A stretch of 64,000 bases of DNA from positions 25,213 through 89,212 of the forward strand of contig CAVQEA010000001.1 of NCBI GenBank assembly GCA_963711395.1, read 5' to 3'. Numbering within the stretch: position 1 is the first letter of the stretch; every line of letters begins with the position of its first letter. Shown here piece after piece: positions 890 to 16,213 of the stretch. The translations under genes were made by a program, and so were the position numbers. This DNA comes from an uncultured delta proteobacterium. Its GTDB lineage: Bacteria; Desulfobacterota; Binatia; JACPRU01. The notes below the pieces were generated by a model, which saw only the letters and a program-made list of their open reading frames with translations, had not been told where the DNA came from and made no database searches.

Positions 890-2122
890 CTAGAAGACGT
901 AGCTGGCGGCGATCGAGATGGTGTCCTGGTAGTCCCGAGTCGGGAAGGTGGTGGTGATCTCGCCGGTGGTCGGATCGGTGGTGACGATCGTGCCGTTCTT
1001 GGTGAACACGCTCTCGTCCGAGCCGTCATGTCGATACTCCAGCCAGACGGTGAGCTTGTCGGTGATGAAATACTTCCCGGTGGCTGTCACCTCCCAGAGT
1101 GTCTGGTCGGTACCCGTTCGGAAGCCGCCCTGGTCGCGGAACACCTCACCGCGGAAATAGGTGCCGATCGGAAGGCATATCAGATCCTTGAGCGTGACGC
1201 CGACGACACCGGAGAAGCCGTACCACTCCGCGGTTGCCCCCGGCTGGTTGACCGCCGCGTCGCCTTCACTGCCGTAGTCGCCGTTCAGTGAGATCGTCAC
1301 CGGATCGAAGGTGATCGTGGAGACCACGTCGGCGACTCCACGGGGGTGACTGCTCGTGTCGTTCTCCTCGGGGCCGAAGATGCCGTTGACGATCAGCGAG
1401 AAATGCGGGTTCGCCGTCCAGGCGACGTTGCCCATGAACGTCTTGCCGTTGTTGTTGTCGGCGACGTTGTCCCAGCCGTTGACCACCCCCAGGTTGACCT
1501 GCAGGGCATCCGTGATGGGGTAGTTGAACATGAGGCCGGTGTTGGTGAAGGGGATCGCGAAGCCGAACAGGAACGATCGGCTGTAGTTCATGTTGAGCGG
1601 CGCCTCGATGACCTCGGCGCCGAGCAGCGTGACGAACTTGCCGAACTTCGCCGATAAGCCGTGAGACCAATCGGGTGCGTAGTTGGCGTAGACTTCCTCG
1701 ATCTCGAAATCGCCTGAATCGCCGGTGACGCCGGTGAATTGACCGTTCCCCTTCCAGTCTGCGCCGATACGGCTCGCTGTGTTGCCGACGTCGAGCGTGA
1801 TTTTGGCCGACAGACCCCCGGGTCCCTTCTTGGCGATGCCGAGCTGGAACAGATCGACACCGAAGACGTTGTCCTGGTTGTCGAGCGAGCGAAGCGTGTT
1901 TTGGCGATTGTCGGGCTCGTTGAAGTTCCACAGGTACGACGTATAGAACATTCCACTGAGCTCAAAGCCCGACAGCGCGCCGAGCGACTTCTCGATATCG
2001 GTTACTCGCTCGTCGAGCGACTTGGGCGGGGGTATACTCTCGCCCTCGGCTTTCTCCGCTCGTACCGCAATGGCACCGCCCAGCAGCGCGGTGACCGCAA
2101 AGGTGGTGATAAGGAGTCGCAT
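890..2122 (-). CDS. Outer-membrane beta-barrel porin (OmpL-like/BBP2, DUF1597 type)
   Basis: Signal peptide MRLLITTFAVTALLGGAIAVRA, short coiled coil, motifs GKFVTLLGAEVIEAPLNMNYSRS and VVNGWDN, LEYRHD, and a C-terminal aromatic YVF. Confidence 0.8.
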   Translation of the reverse strand: MRLLITTFAVTALLGGAIAVRAEKAEGESIPPPKSLDERVTDIEKSLGALSGFELSGMFYTSYLWNFNEPDNRQNTLRSLDNQDNVFGVDLFQLGIAKKGPGGLSAKITLDVGNTASRIGADWKGNGQFTGVTGDSGDFEIEEVYANYAPDWSHGLSAKFGKFVTLLGAEVIEAPLNMNYSRSFLFGFAIPFTNTGLMFNYPITDALQVNLGVVNGWDNVADNNNGKTFMGNVAWTANPHFSLIVNGIFGPEENDTSSHPRGVADVVSTITFDPVTISLNGDYGSEGDAAVNQPGATAEWYGFSGVVGVTLKDLICLPIGTYFRGEVFRDQGGFRTGTDQTLWEVTATGKYFITDKLTVWLEYRHDGSDESVFTKNGTIVTTDPTTGEITTTFPTRDYQDTISIAASYVF

Positions 2123-2187
2123 GGAATGTCGCCTCTCCTGCCTGTGGGGTCGAACCGAGACCCATCTAGCCATCAGTCAGACTTGAG

Positions 2188-2305: not shown

Positions 2306-4552
2306 TCAGTTCGGAGCGCCGGCCGCGAAGAGCGCCGACAGGAAGTCTTCCGCCCATGTCAGCGCGGTCGTACGGGACACGGCGGCGAGCAGCTTTTCAT
2401 GCCGCATCCGTCGCTCGTCGAGCCCCATGCGCAGCGCGCGATCGAGGTCTCGCGCGAGGCCGTCCACGTGCCACGGGTTCGTCAGTAGGGCGTCGGTGAG
2501 CTCGACGGCGGCCCCCGCGAAACGCGAGAGCACCAGGACTCCCGGATCGTCCGGGTCCTGGGCCGCCACCCACTCCTTGGCGACCAGGTTCATGCCGTCG
2601 CGCAGCGGCGTGACGTAGCCGACGGCGGAAGCGCGGTAGAGCTGCGAGAGCTGGTTGCGCCCGTATGACCGATAGAGGTAGCGAATCGGCACCCAGTCGC
2701 CCTCGCCGAACTCGCCGTTCGTGCGCCCGACGATGGTCTCGACGCGCTGGCGCTGCTCTGCGTAGGCCGGCACGTCGCTACGCGAAGGCACCGAGATCTG
2801 CACGAGCGAAACCTTTCGGCGCCACTCCGGGTAGAGCTCCAGGAGACGCGCGAATCCTTCGAGACGCTCTGGAATTCCCTTCGTGTAGTCGAGGCGATCT
2901 ACACCGAGGACGAGCCGACTCGGCGCGATCGAGCGCATCAAGCTCGCCACCTCTTCCGCCGTCGAGGGCGCTGCAGGCTCCTGGAAGCCCTCCGGGATGA
3001 TCCCGATCGGGAAGGCGCCGATGCGCGTGCGCCGGCCGCGGTACTCGATCGCGTCGTCACCCACTAACGTACCCGGGAGCGCCGCAATGCAGCGGCGGAA
3101 GTTCTCCACGTGACCCGGCGTGTGGAAGCCGACCAGGTCGAGCGCGAGCAGTGCTCCGAGTACCTCCTCCGCCCACGGCAGGATGAAGAAGACGTCTGGG
3201 GACGGGAAACGGCACGTGTAGAAAGAGCCCGATCGGCCCCCTGTGCCCGCGCTCGCGCAGTCGCTGGCCGAGCAGGAAGAGATGATAGTCGTGGACCCAC
3301 ACCGCGTCCTCGGGACCGACCAGACGAGCAGCCACGCTCGCAAAGACCTCGTTGGCGTCGCGGTATGCCTGCCAATCCTGGTCCGACAGCTGTACGCGGT
3401 TCGGGAAGGAATGCAGTAGCGGCCACAGAGCGCCGTTGCAGAGCCCGTTGTAGTAATGACCGTGGCACTCGTCGGTGAAGTCGATCCATGCCCGCGCCGG
3501 CTCGGCGGAGTCGTCGAGACCGAAGGACGTCGCATCGACGTCCGGCCGTGTGCGGCCACTCCACCCGAGCCAAACGCCTCGGCGGAGCCCAGAGCGCCGG
3601 CTCGAGCGCGGATACCAAGCCGCCGACGTTGCGCTTGCGCGCGTCGAACGAATCCGCCGCGGAGCGCAGCTCGGGCAAGCGGTTGGAGACGACCAGCAGA
3701 CGGTAGGCATAGGGCGAGCCGAGATCGATCCGGGGAATCTCGATACGCCGTGGTGGCGCGAACGGCTCGGTGTCGGTCGCGCTGCGGCGAACGGCCAGCA
3801 TCCAGCGCAGGAGTCTCTCCGTTTCCTCGGGCGCGTCGAGTCGCCAGCGCGCAGCGGTCGCACGACCGGCTTCGTTGCTGACTAGCACCGACTCGTCCTC
3901 GGCGGCGAGGCTGCGGAACATGTCCTCGTCGGTGACGTCGTCGCCCAGTGCCAGAAGGCGCGCGCCCGCGCCTGCGCGCTCGCGAAGCCATGCGATGGCG
4001 CTCCCTTTTCGCAAGCGCGCCGGCCGCACTTCCAGACACCTCCGACGCGCGCACGTCGACGAAGCGCGAGTGGCCCGTGAGCCAGGCGGCGACGCGATTC
4101 TCGACCTCGACCACGGCGCCCTCGCGGCGCTCGGGCGCGATGGCGCGGAAGTGGAACGCGACCGACCACGTCTTGCGTTCGACGCGGGCGCCGGGATGGC
4201 GAGTGGCCAGGGCGCGCAGCTCCTCCGCCAGATCTTCCACCTCATCCTGCGAGGCCTCGGCCCACGGTTGCCAGGCACCCGCGTCGCGGCGCCATCCGCC
4301 GTGCTCCGCGACGAGCAGCACATCGGCGGCGCCCGCGAAAAACCCCTCGAGCACTTCCCGAGGGCGGCCGCTCATCACGGCCACCGTCATGCCCGGCGAG
4401 GCCGCGAGATCCGCGATCAGTGCGACGAGCTCGGGGCCGGGTCGCGCGCTCTCCGGCGTCGACGTGAACGGGATCAGTGTGCCGTCCAGGTCGACGAGGA
4501 TGGCGAGCGGCGTCCAGCGCGCGAGCGCCAGCCAGTGATCGTACTCGGACAC
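2306..4552 (-). CDS. otsB-otsA: Trehalose-6-phosphate phosphatase (HAD)-trehalose-6-phosphate synthase fusion; several frameshifts
   Basis: N-terminal HAD motifs DLDGTL, AEHG, KG and [13 protein letters not shown] motifs [47 protein letters not shown] and [12 protein letters not shown], spread over three reading frames. Confidence 0.85.
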
Positions 4553-4570: not shown

Positions 4571-5028
4571 CTATCCGCAGATGCGGGAAGGAACGGAATA
4601 CCGCGTCAGTTGGCGCTCTCCGCCGGCTTGAAGGTCAGCACAGCCCCGTTCCGGGGGATCGACTTCTTCGGCACGGCGGCGCGCGTGACCGCGAAGCTCA
4701 AGATCTCGCTGAGTCGCCCAACTGCCGACGACCTGGTCGACGGGCAACAGCGCGATGAGGGCGTCAGCGCGCTGCCCGATGCCGGCGCTCAACTCTACGA
4801 TCCGGGCTGCACGCTCTGCGAGTTGATCGTCGAGCACGACTTCGATCTTCATCCTCGGGGAAGTCGGGGACGTATTCGGCCCCGCGATAGAGCTGCCGTG
4901 CGCCCTTCTCCTGGACCGCAGCGTTTCACTTCGGAAACGGTTATCTCCTCGAGCCCCAGCGTGACGAGGGCGTCCTTCACCGCTCCCAGTGTTCCGGGTC
5001 GAATGATTGCCTCGAGCTTCTTCATCAT
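4571..5028 (-). CDS. P-II-like (GlnB fold) protein, copy 2; two apparent indels, 3' end uncertain
   Basis: MMKKLEAIIRPGTLGAVKDALVTLGLEEITVSEVKR, then in shifted frames QLYRGAEYVPDF and RMKIEVVLDDQ. RBS GGAGGA. Confidence 0.7.
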
Positions 5029-5435
5029 CGTCCTCCTTCGACGGTGGTGTCGCCGCCGTCGGTGACCGCACCGTCGGACAAGTCTTTCCGTGCGAGCTTG
5101 GCGCGCCGCAGCCAGAGCTGCTCGACGAGGCCCGCATACAGCGCGGCAGCGAACAGTAACCACCAACCGCCCAACAGGATGGAGCTCGGAAGAGCCGGCA
5201 GAATGCCCGGCCACATGGCCAGAGCCCACACCATAGCGCTGATCGGCGCGAGTATGACCAGTAGATCGTGGCGAGTGTGTTGCGCGCGCTCGAATGCACA
5301 CTGCGCAACCAGGAAGGCGCGCAGCGCCCGCTGCGGGGCGTGATCGCTACACGGCAGGCTCGCGCCGGCCGATTGGCGGACCAGGCCGGAGTCGCGTGCC
5401 GGCGCCGCATAGACGCGACGAGGTAGATTCAGCAT
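5025..5435 (-). CDS. Hypothetical membrane protein (two TM helices)
   Basis: ORF 5025..5453, likely start MLNLP at 5435. Two hydrophobic segments. The stop overlaps the P-II copy 2 start codons. Confidence 0.6.
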   Translation of the reverse strand: MLNLPRRVYAAPARDSGLVRQSAGASLPCSDHAPQRALRAFLVAQCAFERAQHTRHDLLVILAPISAMVWALAMWPGILPALPSSILLGGWWLLFAAALYAGLVEQLWLRRAKLARKDLSDGAVTDGGDTTVEGGR

Positions 5436-5466
5436 GTGCCCGACGCCACCCATCGCGAGGACGGCA

Positions 5467-5481
5467 GCACGTACCGTGCCA
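5467..5481 (-). promoter_or_regulatory. sigma54 -24/-12 promoter
   Basis: Minus strand TGGCAC-GGTAC-GTGC. Confidence 0.75.
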
Positions 5482-5544
5482 CGGAAGATCCGCGAGCGTT
5501 TCTCTACGACGTGTCAGCCTGCGTGCTCGCGCGTTCCGCCAGAA

Positions 5545-5561
5545 TGCAAGTACGCTTTGCA
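5545..5561. promoter_or_regulatory. Palindromic enhancer-like site TGCAA-N7-TTGCA
   Basis: TGCAAGTACGCTTTGCA; 16/17 identical to the 2265 site and about 64 bp from the -24 element. Confidence 0.6.
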
Positions 5562-5610
5562 GATCGAAGCACAGGTCTCGAAGCGAAAAGGCGAATCGGA
5601 GCACCGCGCT

Positions 5611-5913
5611 TCACAGATGCTCGGCGGCGGCGAGAACGAACATCATCCAACCGTCGGCGCATCCCGTCTTGGCCGCGCGCTGAATGGTCGAGATCACCGA
5701 CGGGACGAGCTCGTCGTTCACGACGAGCTCGAGCTTCACTCTCGGCAGGAATGCGAGTGCATGGGTCTCACCGCCAGGAGATTCGGCACGCGCCGCCTCA
5801 CGTGCAAAGCGCTTGACCTCGCTCACGGCGGCCTCGCGCACGCACATTGCTCCGAGGGCGCGCTTCACTTCCTCGAGCCTGGACGGCTTGATGATCGCCT
5901 CGATTCGTCTCAC
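5611..5913 (-). CDS. P-II-like (GlnB fold) protein, copy 1; degenerate T-loop and B-loop
   Basis: [21 protein letters not shown]...VSEVKRF...[30 protein letters not shown] aligns with GlnB by eye. The start overlaps the kdpC stop (GTGA). Confidence 0.75.
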
Positions 5914-6569
5914 GGACGCGCGATCGGTCTAGTTGCTGGAAGCATTGCTCGCCGGCGGCGCCGAGTGGATCTCGGAGAGGCCGGGGCGGTATTTGGACTC
6001 GCCTCGTCGAGCGCCAGGTTCAGCTCGAGAACGTTGACCCGTGGGTCACCGAGGATTCCGTATTGGCGGCCTTCGACGTGGGCTCGCAGCAGCTCTCGCA
6101 CCTTGTCTTCGGGGAGTTTGCGGGCCTTGGCCACGCGCGCGACCTGGAGCTCGGCCGCCGCCGGGCTGATGTGTGGATCGAGCCCGCTTCCCGAGGTGGT
6201 CACTAGATCCGCGGGGATCTTGGCACCGGGATTCTCGCTGGCCAGCTGCTGCACGGCGTCGCCGACGCGCTTCTGGAGGCCGGCATCATTCGGACCGAGG
6301 TTCGAGCCGCTCGAGGCGCCGGCGTCGTAGCCGTTCGTGCCGGCGGCCGAAGGGCGGGGGTGGAAGTAACCGTCGCCCGCGAAGTTCTGGCCGATCAGCT
6401 CCGATCCGATCACCTGATCGCCGTGGACGATCAGGCTGCCGTTCGCCTGGTGGGGAAAGAGGAGCTGGGCGAGACCCGTCATCGCCAGCGGGTAGAGGAT
6501 GCCGGTGATCACGGTGAGGATCAGAGTCATGAGGATCGCGGGACGGAGCTCGGAAAGCATGTGGGTCAC
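5910..6569 (-). CDS. kdpC: K+-transporting ATPase subunit C
   Basis: [63 protein letters not shown]. Confidence 0.95.
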
Positions 6570-6581
6570 CTCTGCAGGCGC

Positions 6582-8636
6582 TCAAGCCAAATGGAGCGCG
6601 GAGACGATGAGATCGATCGCCTTGATGCCGATGAACGGCACGATGATGCCGCCGACGCCGTAGACGAGCAGGTTCCGCCGCAAGATCGCGGCTGCGCCCA
6701 GCGGACGGAACTTCACGCCGCGCAGCGCGAGCGGGATCAGCGCGATGATGATGAGCGCGTTGAAGATGATCGCCGAGAGGATCGCGCTTCGCGGCGTCGC
6801 GAGGCCCATGATGTTGAGCGCGTTCAGCTCGGGATAGGTGGCGGCGAACATCGCCGGGATGATCGCGAAGTACTTGGCCACGTCGTTGGCGATCGAGAAC
6901 GTGGTGAGCGAGCCGCGCGTGATCAGCAGCTGCTTGCCGATCTCGACGATCTCGATGAGCTTGGTCGGGTTGGAGTCGAGGTCGACCATGTTGCCGGCCT
7001 CTTTGGCGGCGGAGGTGCCGGTGTTCATCGCCACGCCGACGTCGGCCTGGGCGAGCGCGGGCGCGTCGTTGGTGCCGTCGCCGCACATCGCCACCAGCTT
7101 GCCCTTCGCCTGCTCCTCGCGGATCAATGCCAGCTTGTTCTCGGGCGTGGCCTGGGCGAGGAAGTCGTCGACCCCTGACTCGGCAGCGATCGCCGCGGCG
7201 GTGAGCGGGTTGTCGCCGGTGATCATCACCGTGCGGATACCCATCGTCCGGAGCTCTGCGAAGCGCTCCTTGATTCCCCCTTTGACGACGTCCTTGAGGT
7301 GAATGATGCCGAGCAGCTTCTGGTCCTTGGCGACCGCGAGCGGCGTGCCACCCGAGCGGGCGATCCGCTCGGCGATCGTCTTGAGCTCCGGCGGAGGCTG
7401 GAAGGTCCGGCCGTTCTTGCTCTTGGCGAACTCGATGATCGCGTCGACGGCACCCTTGCGGACCTCGGCGCCGTTGAGATTGACGCCGCTCATGCGGCTC
7501 TGCGCCGTGAACGGCACGAAGTGGCCGCCGAGCTCGCGGACGTCGCGTCCACGCAGGCCGTAGCGCTCTTTGGCGAGCACGACGATCGAGCGGCCTTCCG
7601 GCGTCTCGTCCGAGAGCGAAGCGAGCTGCGCGGCGTCGGCGAGATCCTCGTCCTTGACGCCCGGGAGCGGCAGGAGCTCGCTCGCCATGCGGTTGCCGAG
7701 CGTGATCGTGCCGGTCTTGTCGAGGAGCAGCGTGTCCACGTCGCCAGCGGCCTCGACCGCGCGGCCCGACATGGCGAGCACGTTGTACTTCACCAGCCGG
7801 TCCATGCCGGCGATGCCGATGGCCGAAAGCAGACCGCCGATCGTGGTGGGAATCAGCGTGACGAAGAGGGCGATCAGGATCGCGACCGAGATCGCCGACC
7901 CGGCGTAAAGGCCGAACATCTCGATCGACACCGTGACGAACACGAAGATGATCGTCATGCCGACGAGCAGGATCGACAGCGCGATCTCGTTCGGGGTCTT
8001 CTGGCGCTTGGCGCCCTCGACGAGCGCGATCATGCGGTCGAGGAACGTCTCACCCGGATTCGAGGTGATCTTCACCTTGATCCAGTCGGAGAGCACGCGC
8101 GTGCCGCCGGTGACGGCGGAACGGTCGCCGCCGCTTTCCCGGATCACCGGGGCGGATTCGCCCGTGATCGCCGATTCGTCGACCGAGGCGATGCCTTCGA
8201 TCACGTCGCCGTCGCCAGGGATGACCTCGCCCGCTACGACCAGCACGATGTCGTCGCGGCGGAGCTGCGTGGCGGGAACACGTTCGCCGTGCTCGTCGTC
8301 GACCTTGCGCAGGCGCATCGCGACCGTCTCGGTCCGCGTCTTTCGCAGCGTGTCTGCCTGCGCCTTGCCGCGCCCCTCGGCGACCGCCTCGGCGAAGTTG
8401 GCGAACAGCACCGTGAACCACAGCCAGGCGCTGAGCTGGCCGGTGAAGGCCGCGTCGCCCATCGCTCCGCTGAACAGGTCTCGGACGAAGATGACCGTGG
8501 TCGCGGCGGAGACGATCTCGACCACGAACATGACGGGGTTGCGCATCAGTGTCCGCGGATCGAGCTTGTAGAACGAGTCGAGAATCGCTGGACGAAGCAG
8601 CGCTGGATCGAAGATCGAGGACTTGGCTCTGGACAT
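6582..8636 (-). CDS. kdpB: K+-transporting P-type ATPase subunit B
   Basis: [44 protein letters not shown]; intact 684 aa. Confidence 0.98.
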
Positions 8637-8649
8637 GGACGTAGGACCT

Positions 8650-10359
8650 CTAGAGAGTCTTGCCGGCCATCATGAACAGATGGTCGACGATCGGGCCGAG
8701 CGAGAGCGCGGGGAAGAACGTGAGCCCGCCGACGATCAGGATGACGCCGACGAGCAGCGCGACGAACAGCGGCGTGTTGGTCGGAAACGTTCCGCTCGAC
8801 GGCGGCACGAGCTTCTTCTTCACCAGCGAGCCGGCGATGGCGATCGTCGGCACGATCATCAGGAAGCGGCCGAACAGCATCGCTAAACCGATCGTCAGAT
8901 TGTAGAAGACCGTGTTCGCGGAGATGCCCGCAAAGGCGCTGCCGTTGTTGCCGGTGCCGGACGAGTACGCGTAGAGGATCTCGCTGAAGCCGTGCGGCCC
9001 CTTGTTGAGAGGGCCGGCGAGACCGGAAGGCGAGACGCTCGCGAGCGCGGTGAAGCCGAGGATCGAGAACTCGAGGATCAGGATGGCCAAGACGGCCATC
9101 GTCACCTCCTTGGCCTCGATCTTCTTGCCGAGGTATTCCGGCGTGCGGCCCACCATCAGGCCGGCGATGAAGACCGAGAGCACGGCGAAGAGCAGCATGC
9201 CGTAGAGACCGGCGCCCGTGCCGCCGATCACCACCTCGCCGAGCTGGATGTTGAGTAGCGGGATCAAGCCGCCGAGCGGGGTGAAGCTGTCGTGCATGCT
9301 GTTGACGGCGCCGCAGGAGGTGCCGGTGGTCACGGCTGCCCACAAAGCGGACTTGGGGAGACCAAAGCGAACCTCCTTGCCCTCCATGTTGCCGCCCGTG
9401 GGATCGACGCCGAGGCGGGCGAACGCGGGATTGCCCGCCGCTTCGGACCAGTACGCGATGAAGACGCCGGTCAGCAGGATCGCCAGCATCGCGCCAAGAA
9501 GCGCCCAGCCCTGGCGGGTGTCGCGCACCATGACGCCGAAGGTGTAGGTGAGCGCCGCGCTCACTAGCAGGATCGCGAACATCTCGAGATGGTCCGTCAG
9601 CGGCGTGGGGTTCTCGTAGGGATGGGCCGAGTTGGCATTGTAGAAGCCACCGCCGTTGGTGCCGAGCTCCTTGATGATCTCTTGCGACGCGACGGGTCCT
9701 TGACCGATCGTCTGGTCCGCGCCCTCGACCGTCTTGACGGCCGTATAGGCGTTCAGGTTCTGCGGCACTCCCTGCCACACCAACACCGGAGTCAGGAGCA
9801 CGCAGATCGGCAGCAGCACCCAAAGCGTGGAGCGGGTGAGGTCCACCCAGAAGTTGCCGATCGTCTTTCCTTCATGGCGCGCGAAACCGCGCACCAGCGC
9901 GATCGCGAGCGCGATGCCGGTCGCCGCCGACACGAAGTTGTGGAACGCGAGCCCGGCCATCTGCGTGAAGTAGCTCATGGTCGTCTCGGGGACGTACGAC
10001 TGCCAGTTGGTGTTGGTGGTGAAGCTCACCGCCGTGTTGAACGATGAGTCCGCCGAGATCGGCCCGAGCCCCTGCGGATTGAACGGCAGGAGGTGTTGGG
10101 CTCGCTGCATCAGGTAGAGCAACAACAAGCCCGCGACGTTGAAGAGCAGCATTGCGATAGTGTAGGTGGTCCAGTGCTGCTCGACGTCCGGGCGCACGCC
10201 GCTCAGCCGGTAGATCAGCCGCTCGACTGGGGCGAGCACGGGGTCAAGGAAGGTGCGCTCGCGCGCGAACACCCGTGCCATGTACAGCCCGAGCGGCTTC
10301 ACGCAGGCGAGCACGAGGCCGAAGAGTACCAATATCTGTAAAATGCCATTCGCAGTCAT
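8650..10359 (-). CDS. kdpA: K+-transporting ATPase subunit A
   Basis: [57 protein letters not shown]; intact 569 aa. Confidence 0.98.
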
Positions 10360-10592: not shown

Positions 10593-10607
10593 GCACCTTC
10601 CATGCCA
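10593..10607 (-). promoter_or_regulatory. sigma54 -24/-12 promoter of the kdp operon
   Basis: Minus strand TGGCAT-GGAAG-GTGC, about 45 bp upstream of the 27-aa peptide start. Confidence 0.7.
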
Positions 10608-11517: not shown

Positions 11518-12855
11518 GTGGCGTCCGTTCTCATCGTGGACGACGACAAGAGCATTCGCAGTACCCTCGGGACCTACATTCGTAGCCTTGGACACGAAGC
11601 CGAAGCGGCCGGCGATGCTGCAGACGCACTAGGTGCGCTTGCTCGGGAAAAGTTCGACATCGTCCTCTCGGACGTACGCATGGGCGGGCTCGATGGAATC
11701 GAGCTGTTGCGGGAGATTCGCGCCGACTGGCCGGAAACGGTGGTCATTCTGATGACCGCGTATGCGACCGTTGCACAGGCGGTCGAGGCGATCCACGCGG
11801 GCGCATACGACTACTTGGTCAAGCCGTTTTCCCCTGAACAGGTCGCTCTTCGGCTCTCACGTGCGGTCGAGCTTCTCTCGCTTCGCAACGAAAACCGAGC
11901 GCTTCGCGGCGCTCTCGATCGTCCCCTGCTGCTTCAGTCGGTGAGCCCGAGGACGAGGAGCGCGATCGACAAGGCGCGCGACGCCGCAGCTTCGGAGGCC
12001 ACGCTGCTACTCACCGGCGAAAGCGGTACCGGCAAGAGCGCCCTCGCCGCGGCAGTGCACGGCTGGAGTCCGCGCCGCGACGGCCCTTTCGTCGCCATCT
12101 CTTGTGCGTCGCTGAACGACCGTATTCTGGAGAGCGCGCTCTTTGGACATGTCAAGGGCGCGTTCCCGAGCGCGTGGAAGAACACCCTCGGCCGGCTCGA
12201 GGCTGCCGCGGGTGGAACCATCTTCCTGGACGACGTCGCCGAGCTTCCGTCCACGCTTCAAGGGCAACTGCTGCGATTCGTCGAGAATCGCCGCTTCGAA
12301 AGGGTCGGAGGGACGCACACCATCGAGGTCGACGCGCGCATCATCGCGGCCACTAGCCGCAATCTCGAAGTGGAGGTCGCGGCCGGCCGTCTTCGCGAGG
12401 ACTTGTTCCATCGTCTGAACGTGCTGAGGATCGACCTCCCGCCGCTGCGGGACCGCCTCGAGGATCTGCCGGCTCTCGCTCGTTCGATTCTTCAAGGGCT
12501 CACCGCGCGATACTCTCGACCCCTCCTGGAGCTCGACTCGGAGGCGGCAGCGGCGCTGGCGCGATACCGCTGGCCTGGAAATGTACGCGAACTACTGAAC
12601 GTGCTGGAGCATGCTGCCGTGGTCAGTGGCGGCAACGTGGTCCGTGTCGATCAGTTGCCCGACCGGTTGCAAGCGCCCGCACCCGCCCCGACATTGGCCG
12701 GGGCCTCCGAGAAGAGCCTCTCTCTCGAAGAGATGGAGCAGCAACAGATCAGATTTGCGCTTGCGGATTCCTCGACGCTCGAGGAAGCGGCCGCGCGCCT
12801 CGGAATCAGTGCGACGACACTTTGGCGCAAGCGGAAGCGCTACAGCCTCGAGTAA
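11518..12855 (+). CDS. NtrC/AlgB-like response regulator (REC-AAA+-HTH) with degenerate GAFTGA and Walker B motifs
   Basis: REC domain (VDDD, SDVRMG, KPF), Walker A GESGTGKS, ESALFGHVKGAFPSA, FLDDV, REDLFHRLNV, WPGNVREL and a Fis-type HTH. Confidence 0.9.
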   Translation: MASVLIVDDDKSIRSTLGTYIRSLGHEAEAAGDAADALGALAREKFDIVLSDVRMGGLDGIELLREIRADWPETVVILMTAYATVAQAVEAIHAGAYDYLVKPFSPEQVALRLSRAVELLSLRNENRALRGALDRPLLLQSVSPRTRSAIDKARDAAASEATLLLTGESGTGKSALAAAVHGWSPRRDGPFVAISCASLNDRILESALFGHVKGAFPSAWKNTLGRLEAAAGGTIFLDDVAELPSTLQGQLLRFVENRRFERVGGTHTIEVDARIIAATSRNLEVEVAAGRLREDLFHRLNVLRIDLPPLRDRLEDLPALARSILQGLTARYSRPLLELDSEAAAALARYRWPGNVRELLNVLEHAAVVSGGNVVRVDQLPDRLQAPAPAPTLAGASEKSLSLEEMEQQQIRFALADSSTLEEAAARLGISATTLWRKRKRYSLE

Positions 12856-13038: not shown

Positions 13039-13119
13039 CGGGACCCCTGTCGCCGGCGTCTGCTACGGGACGCCTGCTACGATGTGGCGCCCGACCGATT
13101 TTCGTGTCAAACGGTTCGC

Positions 13120-14448
13120 GTGAGCGGTGTAGACGACAGGCGCGACGAAACGCCGATCGCGGAAGCGCGAGCCGTCTCGAAGATCTTTGACCGCGACGGT
13201 CGCGAGCTCACTGTGCTGCGCGACGTCAGCCTTGCGATCCGTGAAGGCGAGGTCGTCGCAGTTCTTGGTCCGTCGGGCTGTGGCAAGTCGACACTGCTCC
13301 GCATTTTGACCGGGCTGATCGCGCCGACGAGCGGAGAGGTGCTCTGCCACGGGCAGGGGCTGCGCGGCATCCATCCCGGCGCTTCGATCGTGTTCCAGAA
13401 CTTCGCGCTCTATCCGTGGCTCACTGTCGCCGAGAACGTGCGCGTCGGCCTCCACCGCAAGGGGCTCGGCGCCTCCGAGGAGGCGGGCCGCATCCGGCGC
13501 GCCATCGACCTCGTCGGTCTCGAGGGTTTCGAGGAGGCGTTCCCCAAGGAGCTATCAGGCGGAATGAAGCAGCGCGTGGGCATCGCCCGCGCGCTCGTCG
13601 GAGGACCCGAGCTCCTCTGCATGGACGAGCCGTTCTCGGCGCTCGACGTGCTCACGGCCGAGTCGCTGCGCTCGGAAGTCTACGGGCTCTGGTCCCGCGG
13701 CGACCTCGGCTTGAAGAGCATGCTGCTCATCACTCACCTGATCGAGGAGGCGGTGTTCCTCGGCGACCGAATCGTGATCCTGGCGTCGAATCCTGGATCG
13801 ATCCGGCGGGTGCTCGAGAACCCGCTGCGCCATCCGCGCGAATACCGCGACCCGCGTTTCTCGACTTCGTCGACGAGATCCACGCCGTCATCACCAGCAT
13901 TCACCTGCCCGATGTCGAACGGCCGTCGCGCGGGCCGGCGACGCCGCGCATGGAGCCGCTGCCGCCTGTGGCGATCGGCGAGATCGTCGGTCTTCTCGAG
14001 GTCGTCCACGATCACGGCGATCGCCATCAACCTCTTCGAGCTGGCTTCGCAGTCTGCGGCTCGAGATCGGCCACGCGATCCTCGCCGTGAAGGCCGCGGA
14101 GCTGCTCGGTCTCGTCGACACCCCGAAGCAGGAGGTGGTGCTGACGGCGGCCGGCCGCGAGCTCGTCGGCGGCGACGCCAACGTGCGCAAGCGCATCTTC
14201 CATCGCCAGCTGCTCGGCCACGCCCACCTTCGCGATGCTCGTGGAGCAGCTTCGCCGCGCGCCCGAGCAGGCGGTTGCCGCAAGGACATCGTCGAAGAGC
14301 TCCTGGTGATGAACGTGCCGGACGAGCCGTACGAGGCGCTGTTCGAGACGATCGTCGGTTGGGGGCGCTACGGCGAGCTCCTCGGCTTCGATCCGCGAGA
14401 CACAGAGTGGTGTATCTCGATCCGGAGGCCGGCGCCGTCGCCGCCTGA
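13120..14448 (+). CDS. NitT/TauT-family ABC ATP-binding protein with C-terminal AAA-associated domain; frameshifted
   Basis: [43 protein letters not shown]. The C-terminal extension continues in other frames ([18 protein letters not shown]). Confidence 0.85.
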
Positions 14449-14472
14449 GGCGACGTCACCGGTTCGCGCGAC

Positions 14473-16213
14473 GTGGCCCAGGCGATCGACAGGCCCACGA
14501 GCGTCGAACCTCGGACGCCGCGGCGCCGTCGAGCTCGCCGTCGACGGTGCGATCTCTCTTCGGTGCTCGGCGCGATGGTCGCCGGCACGGTGGCGCTCGC
14601 GCGGCGCTGGGCGGCGCCGCTGCGGCCGACGATCGACATCGACCTGTCGCTGTGGGCGCTGCCGCAAGTACACGCTGCTGTCGCTCTCCCGCGGGCTCGC
14701 CGCTTACGTGCTGTCGCTGGTCTTCACGCTGGTCTACGGCACCATCGCCGCCTACAACCGCCGCGCCGAGCGAGTGATGATCCCGCTGCTCGACGTCCTG
14801 CAGGGCATTCCCGTGCTCGGCTTCCTGCCCGGACTGGTGCTCGGCATGGTCGGCTCTGTTCCCGCACTCGAACGTCGGGCTCGAGCTCGCCTGCGTGCTG
14901 ATGATCTTCACCGGCCAGGTGTGGAACATGACGTTCTCGTTCTACGGGTCGTTGCGCGCGATTCCCGCCGAGCTCCGCGAGGTGGCGCTCGTGCATCGCT
15001 TCGGCTGGTGGAAGCGGTTCCGCACGCTCGAGGTGCCGTCGGCGATGATCGGCCTGGTGTGGAACTCGATGATGTCGATGGCCGGCGGGTGGTTCTTCCT
15101 CACCGTGAACGAATCCTTCACTCTCGGGGATCACGACTTCCGCCTGGCGGGCATCGGCTCCTACATGAGCGTCGCCATCGATCGCGGCGACCGACGGGCG
15201 ATGGCGGGAGCCGTCGTCGCCATGGTCGTGATGATCGTCGTCGTCGACCAGCTGCTGTGGCGCCCGCTCCTCGCCTGGGCGCAGAGGTTCAAGCTGGAGG
15301 ACACGAGCGCGAGCGAGGTGACGCCGCTCGTGGCTTCTCGATCTGTTGCGCCGCTCGCGGGCCGTGTCTTGGCTCGAAGAGCGCCTCGGACGAATCTTCG
15401 CGGCGCTCGAGCGGCGTGCGGCGGCCCGGGGCGCCCGGCGCGGGCAGGGTGGCGGTCGTTCGTGCGCGGCGCCCTCGGCTGGCTCGTCGTCGGCATCGTC
15501 GCGATCGTGGTGCTGCAGGGCGCCAGGCATCTCGTGACGCTGCTCGCCGCCGTGCGCCTGCGCGAATGGCTGAAGCTCGCGTTCGCCCTTCTTCTCACGT
15601 TTCTGCGCACCATGGCCGCGCTGGCGATCGGCGCGGCGTGGTGCGTGCCGGTCGGCGTCTGGGTCGGACGATCGCCGGCTCGCACGCGGCTGATCCAACC
15701 GCTGGTGCAGATCGCCGCGTCCTTTCCCGCCCCGATGATCTTCCCGCTCGCCACCCTCGCCGTGCTCGTCGACTCGGCATGAGCTTCTCCGTCGGCTGCG
15801 TGCTGCTCCTGGTGCTCGGCTCGCAATGGTACATCCTCTTCAACGTGCTCGCCGGCGCCACGGCGATCCCGCAGGATCTGCGAGAAGCGGCGACGACTTA
15901 CGGGCTCGCGCGCTTCGAGATCTGGCGGCGGCTCTATCTGCCCGCGGTGTTCCCCCACCTGGTGACCGGCCTCATCACCGCGGCCGGCGGGGCCTGGAAC
16001 GCGAGCATCGTCGCCGAGTACGTGCGCTACCGGGGCCAGACGCTGGTCGCGCCGGGCCTGGGATCGCTCATCACGGAGGCGACGGCCGCCGCGAACTTTC
16101 CGTTGCTGGCGGCGGGCGTGCTGACGATGTCGCTGGCGCTCGTGACGCTGAACCGCACGGTCTGGAAGCGGCTCTATCGCATCGCCGACGAGCGCTTCAG
16201 CCTCAATCGCTGA
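14473..16213 (+). CDS. ABC transporter permease with two TM modules (NitT/TauT type); frameshifted
   Basis: LDVLQGIPVLGFLP, QVWNMTFSFYGSL, WNSMMSMAGGWFFL, QWYILFNV, GGAWNASIVAEY in successive frames. Confidence 0.85.

Follow-up and report, generated by a model that had tools for sequence, protein, structure and literature searches.

Two divergent P-II-like genes beside kdpC in an uncultured delta proteobacterium: candidate regulatory adaptors in a proposed accessory module of the Kdp locus

Few signal integrators are as widespread as P-II proteins, and the cases in which they were re-aimed at another partner (AmtB, SbtA, NAGK, and ACCase) each revealed new regulatory logic. The residues of canonical P-II proteins that contact Mg-ATP and 2-oxoglutarate (2-OG) are established from structural work, and the related PstA/DarA proteins are tied to cyclic di-AMP (c-di-AMP) and K+ homeostasis. 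To our knowledge, post-translational and accessory control of the KdpFABC potassium pump and the KdpD kinase is poorly known outside enterobacteria and Firmicutes. In Firmicutes, c-di-AMP regulates Kdp and K+ uptake (PMC4686210; PMC8214093). In Desulfovibrio vulgaris (DVU3334-3339), a response regulator that is encoded in the kdp operon and is not the textbook KdpE regulates kdp, according to Rajeev et al. (2011; PMC3333781). Here we describe a Kdp locus from an uncultured delta proteobacterium of the class Binatia, located in a 64,000-nucleotide stretch of contig CAVQEA010000001.1 (positions 25,213 to 89,212; hereafter the window), where kdpC is followed by two genes for divergent P-II-like proteins (copy 1 and copy 2) and, between them, by a gene for a small protein, orf142. 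P-II genes in kdp operons were not described in the literature that our searches returned.

We consider it probable, at roughly 0.6, that both copies are real PF00543 paralogs belonging to an accessory module of the Kdp locus, where they would serve as regulatory adaptors, a function assigned from gene context. Copy 1 is intact, and its PF00543 profile score lies above the gathering cut-off of 25 bits (Table 1). Its GTG start codon (5913-5911) overlaps the kdpC stop codon (5912-5910) as GTGA, consistent with the translational coupling to kdpC proposed in the initial annotation of this sequence. Because the alignment to E. coli GlnB is gapless and colinear, residues of copy 1 can be numbered directly, and they include E27, R35 (EVKRF), F36, A37, a retained R38 (FAREA), E39, A40, H51, R58 (LPRVK), and D-G-W-M at positions 87-90; the protein ends at residue 100, before positions 101 and 103. 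The same alignment bears out the five features first reported for copy 1, namely R35, R58, H51, an altered B-loop, and the missing RIRTGE. Position 51, the site of Tyr51 modification in canonical GlnB and GlnK, is C or Y in the sister genus. Only eight close relatives (70-95% identity) were found among 5.8 billion clusters. Orthologs lie directly after kdpC in 7 of 7 related contigs (L007, L008, L009, L010, L011, L122, and L123), and this, together with the P-II and orf142 genes in kdp loci of the class described below, upholds the conserved linkage to kdp. Divergence among relatives of copy 1 is concentrated in the T-loop, and the core and alpha-2 helix (STIQRAAKT) are invariant. R35 is restricted to the sub-clade formed by the window, L123, L122, and L010, the sister genus having EVKGF, and R58 occurs in all relatives but one, which has K58.

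Copy 2 starts at an ATG (5028) that overlaps the orf142 stop codon as ATGA. In the window it has no open frame, and its motifs are spread over three reading frames. The first frame, from ATG 5028, reads MMKKLEAIIRPGTLGAVKDALVTLGLEEITVSEVKRCGPGEGRT, with ...EVKRCGPGEGRT, and stops at 4849 after 59 amino acids; LYRGAEYVPDF is in the second frame; and the third frame holds PRMKIEVVLDD...GIGQRADALIALLPVDQVV, including GIGQRADAL. The C-terminus (...RAAVPKKSIPRNGAVLTFKPAESAN, ending AESAN, with the stop codon at 4606-4608) occupies 40 codons that are again in the first frame, over which the GC content at third codon positions (GC3) is 0.9-1.0. GC3 plots in 60-nt windows were too noisy for placing the frame changes except at the 3' end, and alignment with the DNA of relatives was used instead; it located three single-base insertions private to the window (Table 1). 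The motifs initially listed for copy 2 are therefore present, with LYRGAEY kept, but they had been joined silently across three frames, and the lower boundary of 4571 given for the gene is the stop codon of a wrong-frame open reading frame (ORF). The stitched protein scores 42 bits against PF00543 (cut-off 25) and has E27, R35, G37, P38, G39, a conserved Y51, R58, A-D-A-L at 87-90, G101, and W103. Because copy 2 is frameshifted, a six-frame Pfam scan of the genome sees only model positions 1-46 (28 bits).

The reading of copy 2 was supported by its relatives. Contig L123, which is ~95% identical to the window over 10.9 kb, encodes an uninterrupted ortholog of 139 amino acids (P0016) with EVKRCGPGEGRTACYRGAEYFPDSPRMKVEVV and the same C-terminal extension, and the orthologs in L122 and L010 are in frame through the T-loop. 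Since the odd motifs recur at the same residues in independent assemblies of relatives, they are not base-calling noise, and polishing would not restore the canonical motifs. Close relatives of copy 2 are few. Position 58 is K, R, or S among them, and the ortholog in the sister genus has DVKGS in the region of R35.

AlphaFold2 (AF2) monomer models gave a P-II core for both copies, with mean confidence (pLDDT) of 78 for copy 1 and 67 for copy 2 and T-loops of low confidence. The modeled elements (strand 2-8, helix 10-22, strand 29-37, loop, strand 55-65, helix 67-81, and strand 90-95) correspond to a ferredoxin-like beta-alpha-beta-beta-alpha-beta core in which a long T-loop links the second and third strands; in copy 2, a disordered tail follows at residues 102-138. 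The best Foldseek matches were GlnZ, GlnB, and GlnK (TM-scores 0.75-0.8). In a phmmer search of the PDB, GlnZ and GlnB came first (E-values 4e-17 to 3e-19), followed by entries 4r25 and 4rx6 (3e-6 to 5e-5), which were deposited as 'nitrogen regulatory PII-like protein' and which we take to be of the PstA/DarA type; no chain named SbtB was among the matches to either copy. Membership in the PstA/DarA or SbtB-type families was rejected, as the sequences are nearer to canonical GlnZ/GlnB in this search. The proteins also fall far below the NCBIfam equivalog cut-offs for NF008111 (202 bits) and NF007946 (181 bits), copy 1 scoring 65.7 and 61.7 bits, and the L123 ortholog of copy 2 scoring 60.5 and 49.8 bits.

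We compared both copies with the canonical set of Mg-ATP and 2-OG contacts (G27, G35, G37, R38, Q39, K58, G87-D88-G89-K90, R101, and R103). Canonical ligand residues are changed in both copies at G27, G35, Q39, K58, 87-90, and 101/103. The three canonical P-II proteins of the same genome keep all the contact residues that are altered in copies 1 and 2. Because most residues for Mg-ATP and 2-OG are lost, both copies probably no longer report nitrogen and energy status in the classical way. Moreover, both lie in the kdp locus and are linked to neither glnA nor amtB, in contrast to the canonical glnB of the genome, which adjoins glnA. A fourth, very divergent P-II-like gene is present elsewhere in the genome (contig C22, 4400-4711; EVKSFRTTNPRKGVYRGIEY...ADGECADERLF).

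The shared R35 and R58 had been taken to mark one distinct subfamily. The phylogeny argues against this. Copy 1 sits on a stem of 1.35 substitutions beside the genome's own glnA-linked glnB, and copy 2 nests in another lineage of canonical P-II proteins of the genome (own_C3/C23), its sister being a 112-amino-acid P-II of the sister genus (support 100/98). A joint clade of the two copies was rejected by the approximately unbiased (AU) test (p = 0.011), and the EVKGF and DVKGS of the sister genus, like the K, R, or S at position 58 in relatives of copy 2 and the K58 in one relative of copy 1, remove R35 and R58 as subfamily marks. From these sequences, copy 1 traces back to glnB of the glnA-linked, housekeeping type, and copy 2 arose independently from another canonical P-II lineage. 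Because the joint clade was rejected and R35 is derived inside each family, R35, R58, and E27, the last not listed in the initial annotation, are parallel changes in one genus-level lineage. This parallelism is suggestive, and with such long stems it is weak evidence when taken alone. Gene conversion as the source of the common R35 was rejected by eye from the flanking codons, which differ (AAG CGC TTT in copy 1 and AAA CGC TGC in copy 2). Likewise, the tree does not group copy 1 with the non-canonical P-II clade that follows kdpC in families f2 and f7. Another P-II of the sister genus, located after the porin gene (L007/L008, 11803-12150), has a 9-residue T-loop deletion (GRQKSHTDDFLPKVK) and keeps GDGKIF and RIRT.

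The gene between the two copies links them to other Kdp loci of the class. The small protein encoded by orf142 contains two hydrophobic segments, taken by eye to be transmembrane (2-TM), and the true start of the gene may be downstream of 5453. orf142 has no Pfam or NCBIfam match, and its family is rare (29 representatives at E <= 1e-3 among 1.84 billion proteins), with a conserved core in the alignment. We found orf142 in 28 of 401 genomes and 13 of 146 genera of the class, and it was absent outside the class in a 400-genome sample of the phylum. The locus was a kdp or KdpD-type locus in 26 of the 28 cases: kdp structural genes lay within ~8 kb in 19, and of the remaining 9 loci, 7 had a KdpD-like kinase and a response regulator next to orf142. 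The genes typically follow in the order kdpFABC, an optional P-II gene, orf142, KdpD, and response regulator. Of the 28 genomes, 11 have a P-II gene in this locus, and they represent six families. It lies between kdpC and orf142 in five genomes (G368, G396, G198, G270, and G090) and directly after kdpC in G225, and both slots are filled in G374, whose layout (kdpC, P-II, porin, orf142, P-II, KdpD, regulator) is as in the window. The module is defined here by orf142 lying between kdpC and a KdpD-type kinase and by a P-II gene that directly follows kdpC, orf142, or both. The order kdpC, copy 1, orf142, copy 2 in the window fits this definition, and the slots are also filled in the five genomes with the intervening P-II and in G374, G225, G281, G002, and G006.

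The P-II proteins in these slots are not of one kind. They are fully canonical in G090, G225, and one of the two copies in G374 (G374_b), and a non-canonical clade unites those of G270, G368, G198, and the other G374 copy (G374_a; support 100/99). Q39, K90, and G27 are lost in all divergent kdp-linked lineages. This recurrence leads us to a broader proposal, which we offer tentatively and at somewhat below even odds: that part of the class carries an undescribed Kdp accessory module made up of the rare 2-TM protein and one or two dedicated P-II proteins, which were recruited or diverged repeatedly, in three or more clades, and lost the 2-OG/ATP site (Q39, K90, and G27) on every occasion. Site loss in parallel in several kdp-linked lineages suggests, at the level of sequence, that these proteins act without a ligand or with a different one. 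P-II beside kdp as a general arrangement was ruled out by surveys of kdpC loci in the class and of other P-II loci. In two genomes of the sister genus, G006 (L214, 10838-12316) and G002 (L215, 4926-6209), an orf142 homolog heads a divergent operon beside kdpF that includes an HPr gene of the phosphotransferase system (PTS), a duplicated 3' fragment of orf142, and a duplicated 5' fragment of the P-II gene, placed before a full, more canonical P-II gene of 112 amino acids (DVKGSASAEARAELYRGAEYVVDFLPKVK ... TGQRGDGNALLLPVDEAIRIRTGQ); this arrangement looks like a local duplication that inserted PTS genes. The close relatives L123 (1-2965) and L010 (1-3500) have a further kdp operon in tandem with the first, separated from it in L010 by a DDE transposase, and the second kdpC of L123 is followed by another divergent P-II-like gene (113 amino acids, EVRGIGHEAGHMERHRGATYFVDWLPKIK).

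Selection on these genes was estimated as pairwise dN/dS (omega; Nei-Gojobori), with a binomial test for neutrality. Omega was 0.32-0.61 for copy 1 in distant pairs, 0.34-0.46 for copy 2, and 0.38-0.53 for orf142, compared to 0.10-0.21 for kdpC and 0.02-0.11 for kdpB. The test ruled out neutral evolution of copy 1 at p = 2e-4 (window vs L011) and of copy 2 at p = 7e-5 (L123 vs L122), in line with the earlier expectation that these are not neutrally decaying glnB copies. Because omega is below 1 in distant pairs and the core and alpha-2 helix of copy 1 are invariant, we regard the copies as fast-evolving yet constrained.

Several observations weigh against regarding the two copies as dedicated parts of a Kdp module. 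Orthologs of copy 1 are present in only 3 of 81 related species genomes. Among the 29 best kdpC loci of the class, 28 have no nearby P-II or orf142 gene, the exception being the window's family, and kdpB or kdpC was found in 0 of 78 other P-II loci fetched with the patterns of copy 1. That the kdp-linked P-II genes share one function is an assumption, since they are distributed over three or more separate clades. The omega of the copies is 3-6 times that of KdpB and KdpC, which is high for a regulator, and reaches ~0.8-1.0 for copy 1 in the closest pairs, values that rest on few changes. Taken with the loss of most canonical effector-binding residues in both copies, their narrow distribution, and the 72-73% identity of copy 1 between the window and L007 where KdpC is 96% identical, these rates are what would be expected if both genes had lost their function after glnB duplications and now drifted under relaxed selection as passengers of the kdp operon. 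We think this improbable, since omega is significantly below 1 in distant pairs, open frames are kept across dS up to ~0.47 in several error-prone assemblies, the start-stop overlaps with neighboring genes are retained, only the T-loop varies around the conserved P-II core and alpha-2 surface, and six families have P-II genes at this position of the locus.

The remodeled clefts admit two further explanations. The copies might have been re-tooled, like PstA/DarA and SbtB, to sense another small ligand (e.g., c-di-AMP, cAMP, or ADP/AMP) whose level reports K+ or osmotic status, given that the canonical site is remodeled rather than deleted, with the new charged residues E27, R35, and R58, and that Kdp and K+ uptake are known to be under c-di-AMP control in Firmicutes (PMC4686210; PMC8214093). 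However, both copies are far nearer to GlnB/GlnZ (E-values of ~1e-17 to 1e-19) than to 4r25/4rx6 (~1e-5 to 1e-6), the B-loop and C-terminus, which usually hold the phosphates, are gone, and the cleft residues are not conserved between genera, so that this explanation appears unlikely. Alternatively, as the initial annotation raised, the two copies might form mixed trimers, with R35 and R58 co-adapted in the clefts between subunits. Within one genus-level lineage, E27, R35, and R58 did arise in both paralogs; these positions all lie along what was once the inter-subunit nucleotide cleft, and the two genes occur together in every contig of that lineage. Nevertheless, we give heterotrimers little credence: the copies have different promoters, different translational partners, and different evolutionary origins, both paralogs lack R35 in the sister genus, and chance alone should fairly often produce one parallel substitution on two branches of such length.

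The three frame breaks in copy 2 are, in our judgment, quite likely consensus errors of a long-read metagenome assembly. The close relatives are metagenome-assembled genomes (MAGs) labeled 'uncultured delta proteobacterium' (isolates MFD10007.bin.2.30 and MFD05674.bin.2.46), which we presume to be long-read Microflora Danica MAGs, and kdpA and kdpB are fragmented in their assemblies. In a three-way alignment, each assembly has private indels whose lengths are not multiples of three, at different sites: 37 in L123 (mostly in kdpA and kdpB), 20 in L122, and 8 in the window. The genome itself is 78.8% complete in only 24 contigs. The otsBA-type gene downstream of copy 2 also has three frame changes, each caused by a 1-nt insertion private to the window (4037, 3591, and 3206); the long ORF call masks them because wrong frames stay open in GC-rich DNA. 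After frame correction, only three nucleotide substitutions in copy 2 are private to the window, and the branch of this copy in the protein tree has zero length.

Against this interpretation, the private insertions are clustered: of the seven single-base insertions that only the window has across 10.8 kb, six lie in copy 2 (three) and otsBA (three), probably one transcription unit, and the 7.6 kb of kdpA/B/C, copy 1, orf142, and porin has none. Such clustering would also fit a real, recent inactivation of the copy 2/otsBA operon in this strain, which would make the two genes genuine pseudogenes, with copy 1 and kdp still functional. All events within genes are insertions, and the ratio of indels to substitutions is 6:18 in copy 2/otsBA vs 0:67 in the other genes. 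We nonetheless favor consensus errors and hold a true inactivation to be the less plausible outcome, as the few private substitutions and the zero-length branch of copy 2 are unlike those of a decaying gene, private 1-nt indels cluster in a similar way in kdpA and kdpB of the sister assemblies, genes that are likewise fragmented in the relatives, and KdpD of the same genome is split over three frames. The N-terminal domain of this KdpD was located ~6.3 kb left of the window start (contig C1, 18286-18920), and the island is therefore not KdpD-less. Within the window, ABC-transporter-like ORFs at 13084-16213 (+) turn into Arg/Pro-rich out-of-frame text mid-gene, which suggests further assembly frameshifts. 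Neither the window nor L123 has a private substitution in the porin gene, whereas their kdpA genes are several percent apart, a contrast that suggests recent recombination or a mosaic assembly across the locus. As a practical caution, motif-level reading in long-read MAGs can cross frameshifts unnoticed.

The placement of both copies in the kdp transcript, as first described, holds for copy 1; copy 2 is separated from it by a 157-nt spacer with a sigma-54-type site and by the 2-TM gene (Table 1), neither of which the initial annotation had noted. The pattern TGGCAY-N5-KTGC has four matches in the 64 kb, compared to 0.38 expected (at 2188, 5467, 10593, and 11049), and all four predicted sites lie in the first 11.1 kb and have minus-strand orientation. 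Those at 5467 and 2188 are preceded by the common 52-nt cassette. The predicted sites and the repeated cassette indicate that orf142, copy 2, and probably otsBA form their own sigma-54 unit, which is co-regulated with the porin gene and kdp. Read-through from kdp into orf142 and copy 2 is possible as well, because no terminator-like site stands between copy 1 and this unit; no sigma-70-like site was found between copy 1 and copy 2 either. Sigma-54 activators normally carry the motif GAFTGA, and the translation of the divergent regulator reads GAFPSA.

Table 1. Features of the Kdp locus in the window
Feature	Coordinates	Strand	Evidence
Copy 1, intact 100-aa P-II-fold gene	5611..5913	-	ORF and translation; PF00543 45 bits
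orf142, small 2-TM protein, partner gene of copy 2	5025..5453	-	ORF, 142 codons
Copy 2, P-II-fold gene with ~38-aa C-terminal extension, broken by three 1-nt insertions	4606..5028	-	Three-frame reading; DNA alignment
Private inserted base 1 in copy 2, ACGGCA[G]CTCTAT	~4893	-	Alignment with three related contigs
Private inserted base 2 in copy 2, within GACTTCCCCGAGG, exact base ambiguous	4856..4862	-	Same kind of DNA alignment
Private inserted base 3 in copy 2, GGTCAC[G]CGCGCC	4684..4685	-	DNA alignment with related contigs
kdpC	5910..6569	-	PF02669 256 bits
kdpB	6582..8636	-	ORF; 96% identical to L007 gene with E1-E2_ATPase and Hydrolase domains
kdpA	8650..10359	-	ORF; matches KdpA genes of relatives
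Sigma-54-type -24/-12 site TGGCACGGTACGTGC, upstream of orf142 and copy 2	5467..5481	-	Motif match
Sigma-54-type site upstream of kdpF/kdpA	10593..10607	-	Motif match
52-nt upstream cassette with TGCAA-N7-TTGCA dyad	5518..5569	-	Direct repeat D5, 83% identity to 2238-2289
otsBA-type trehalose-phosphate phosphatase/synthase fusion, directly downstream of copy 2	2306..4552	-	ORF; Pfam domains on L010 ortholog
BBP2-type porin with own sigma-54 site (2188-2202) and cassette (2238-2289)	890..2173	-	Pfam BBP2 on orthologs
Divergent NtrC-family REC-AAA+-HTH regulator	11518..12855	+	NCBIfam AtoC/NtrC-type matches, all below equivalog cut-offs

Together, these features outline how the module might work. 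Its genes would run in the order kdpFABC, an optional P-II-like gene, the optional 2-TM orf142, a further optional P-II-like gene, a KdpD-type kinase, and a response regulator, often of the sigma-54 type. Copy 1 would be co-translated with kdpC, and copy 2 would be translationally coupled to orf142 behind the predicted sigma-54 promoter. Each copy could then act as a trimeric adaptor that uses its T-loop or alpha-2 surface to dock at the membrane on orf142 and/or KdpD, or on KdpFABC itself, and so tune expression or activity of the pump, by analogy to GlnK plugging AmtB and to GlnB acting on NtrB-NtrC-sigma54. In lineages whose kdp-linked P-II is still canonical, energy and 2-OG status would be fed into K+ uptake, and in the lineage of the window this effector input may have been lost or changed. 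The present analysis shows the fold and descent of the two copies, their lost ligand residues, the selection on them, their synteny, and their promoters; the binding partners and the effect on Kdp are inferred from gene context. The conserved trio of kdpC, P-II-like gene, and 2-TM protein beside KdpD is a concrete candidate for Kdp control, and docking of this kind, if true, would be a route for rewiring P-II-type signaling from nitrogen to potassium and osmotic control.

Compared to described systems, the locus is a variant, here at Kdp, of the known theme of a P-II gene beside its target. The D. vulgaris kdp operon (PMC3333781) is a precedent for kdp control by an operon-encoded response regulator; it differs in that the description of that operon includes no P-II-like or orf142-type gene. 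With SbtB-SbtA and PstA/DarA, the two copies share the P-II fold, a remodeled ligand cleft, and a thematic link to ion transport and K+, but by sequence they are divergent members of canonical PF00543. The locus resembles the GlnB-NtrB-NtrC-sigma54 system in that copy 1 comes from the glnA-linked glnB type and in its sigma-54-type promoters, NtrC-family regulator, and KdpD-type kinase 6.3 kb away, whereas its output comprises genes for K+ uptake and osmoprotection, the copies score below the GlnB/GlnK equivalog cut-offs, and the effector site is gone. Compared to GlnK-AmtB, the locus has a P-type ATPase and a small 2-TM protein in place of the ammonium channel, and the residues for ATP, ADP, and 2-OG, and in copy 1 also Tyr51, have been lost. 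As in GlnK-AmtB, however, a P-II-fold gene is coupled to a membrane-transport operon (copy 1 to kdpC and copy 2 to orf142) and the length of the T-loop is preserved; if docking on orf142/KdpD or KdpFABC is true, this would be the third P-II-transporter partnership, after GlnK-AmtB and SbtB-SbtA.

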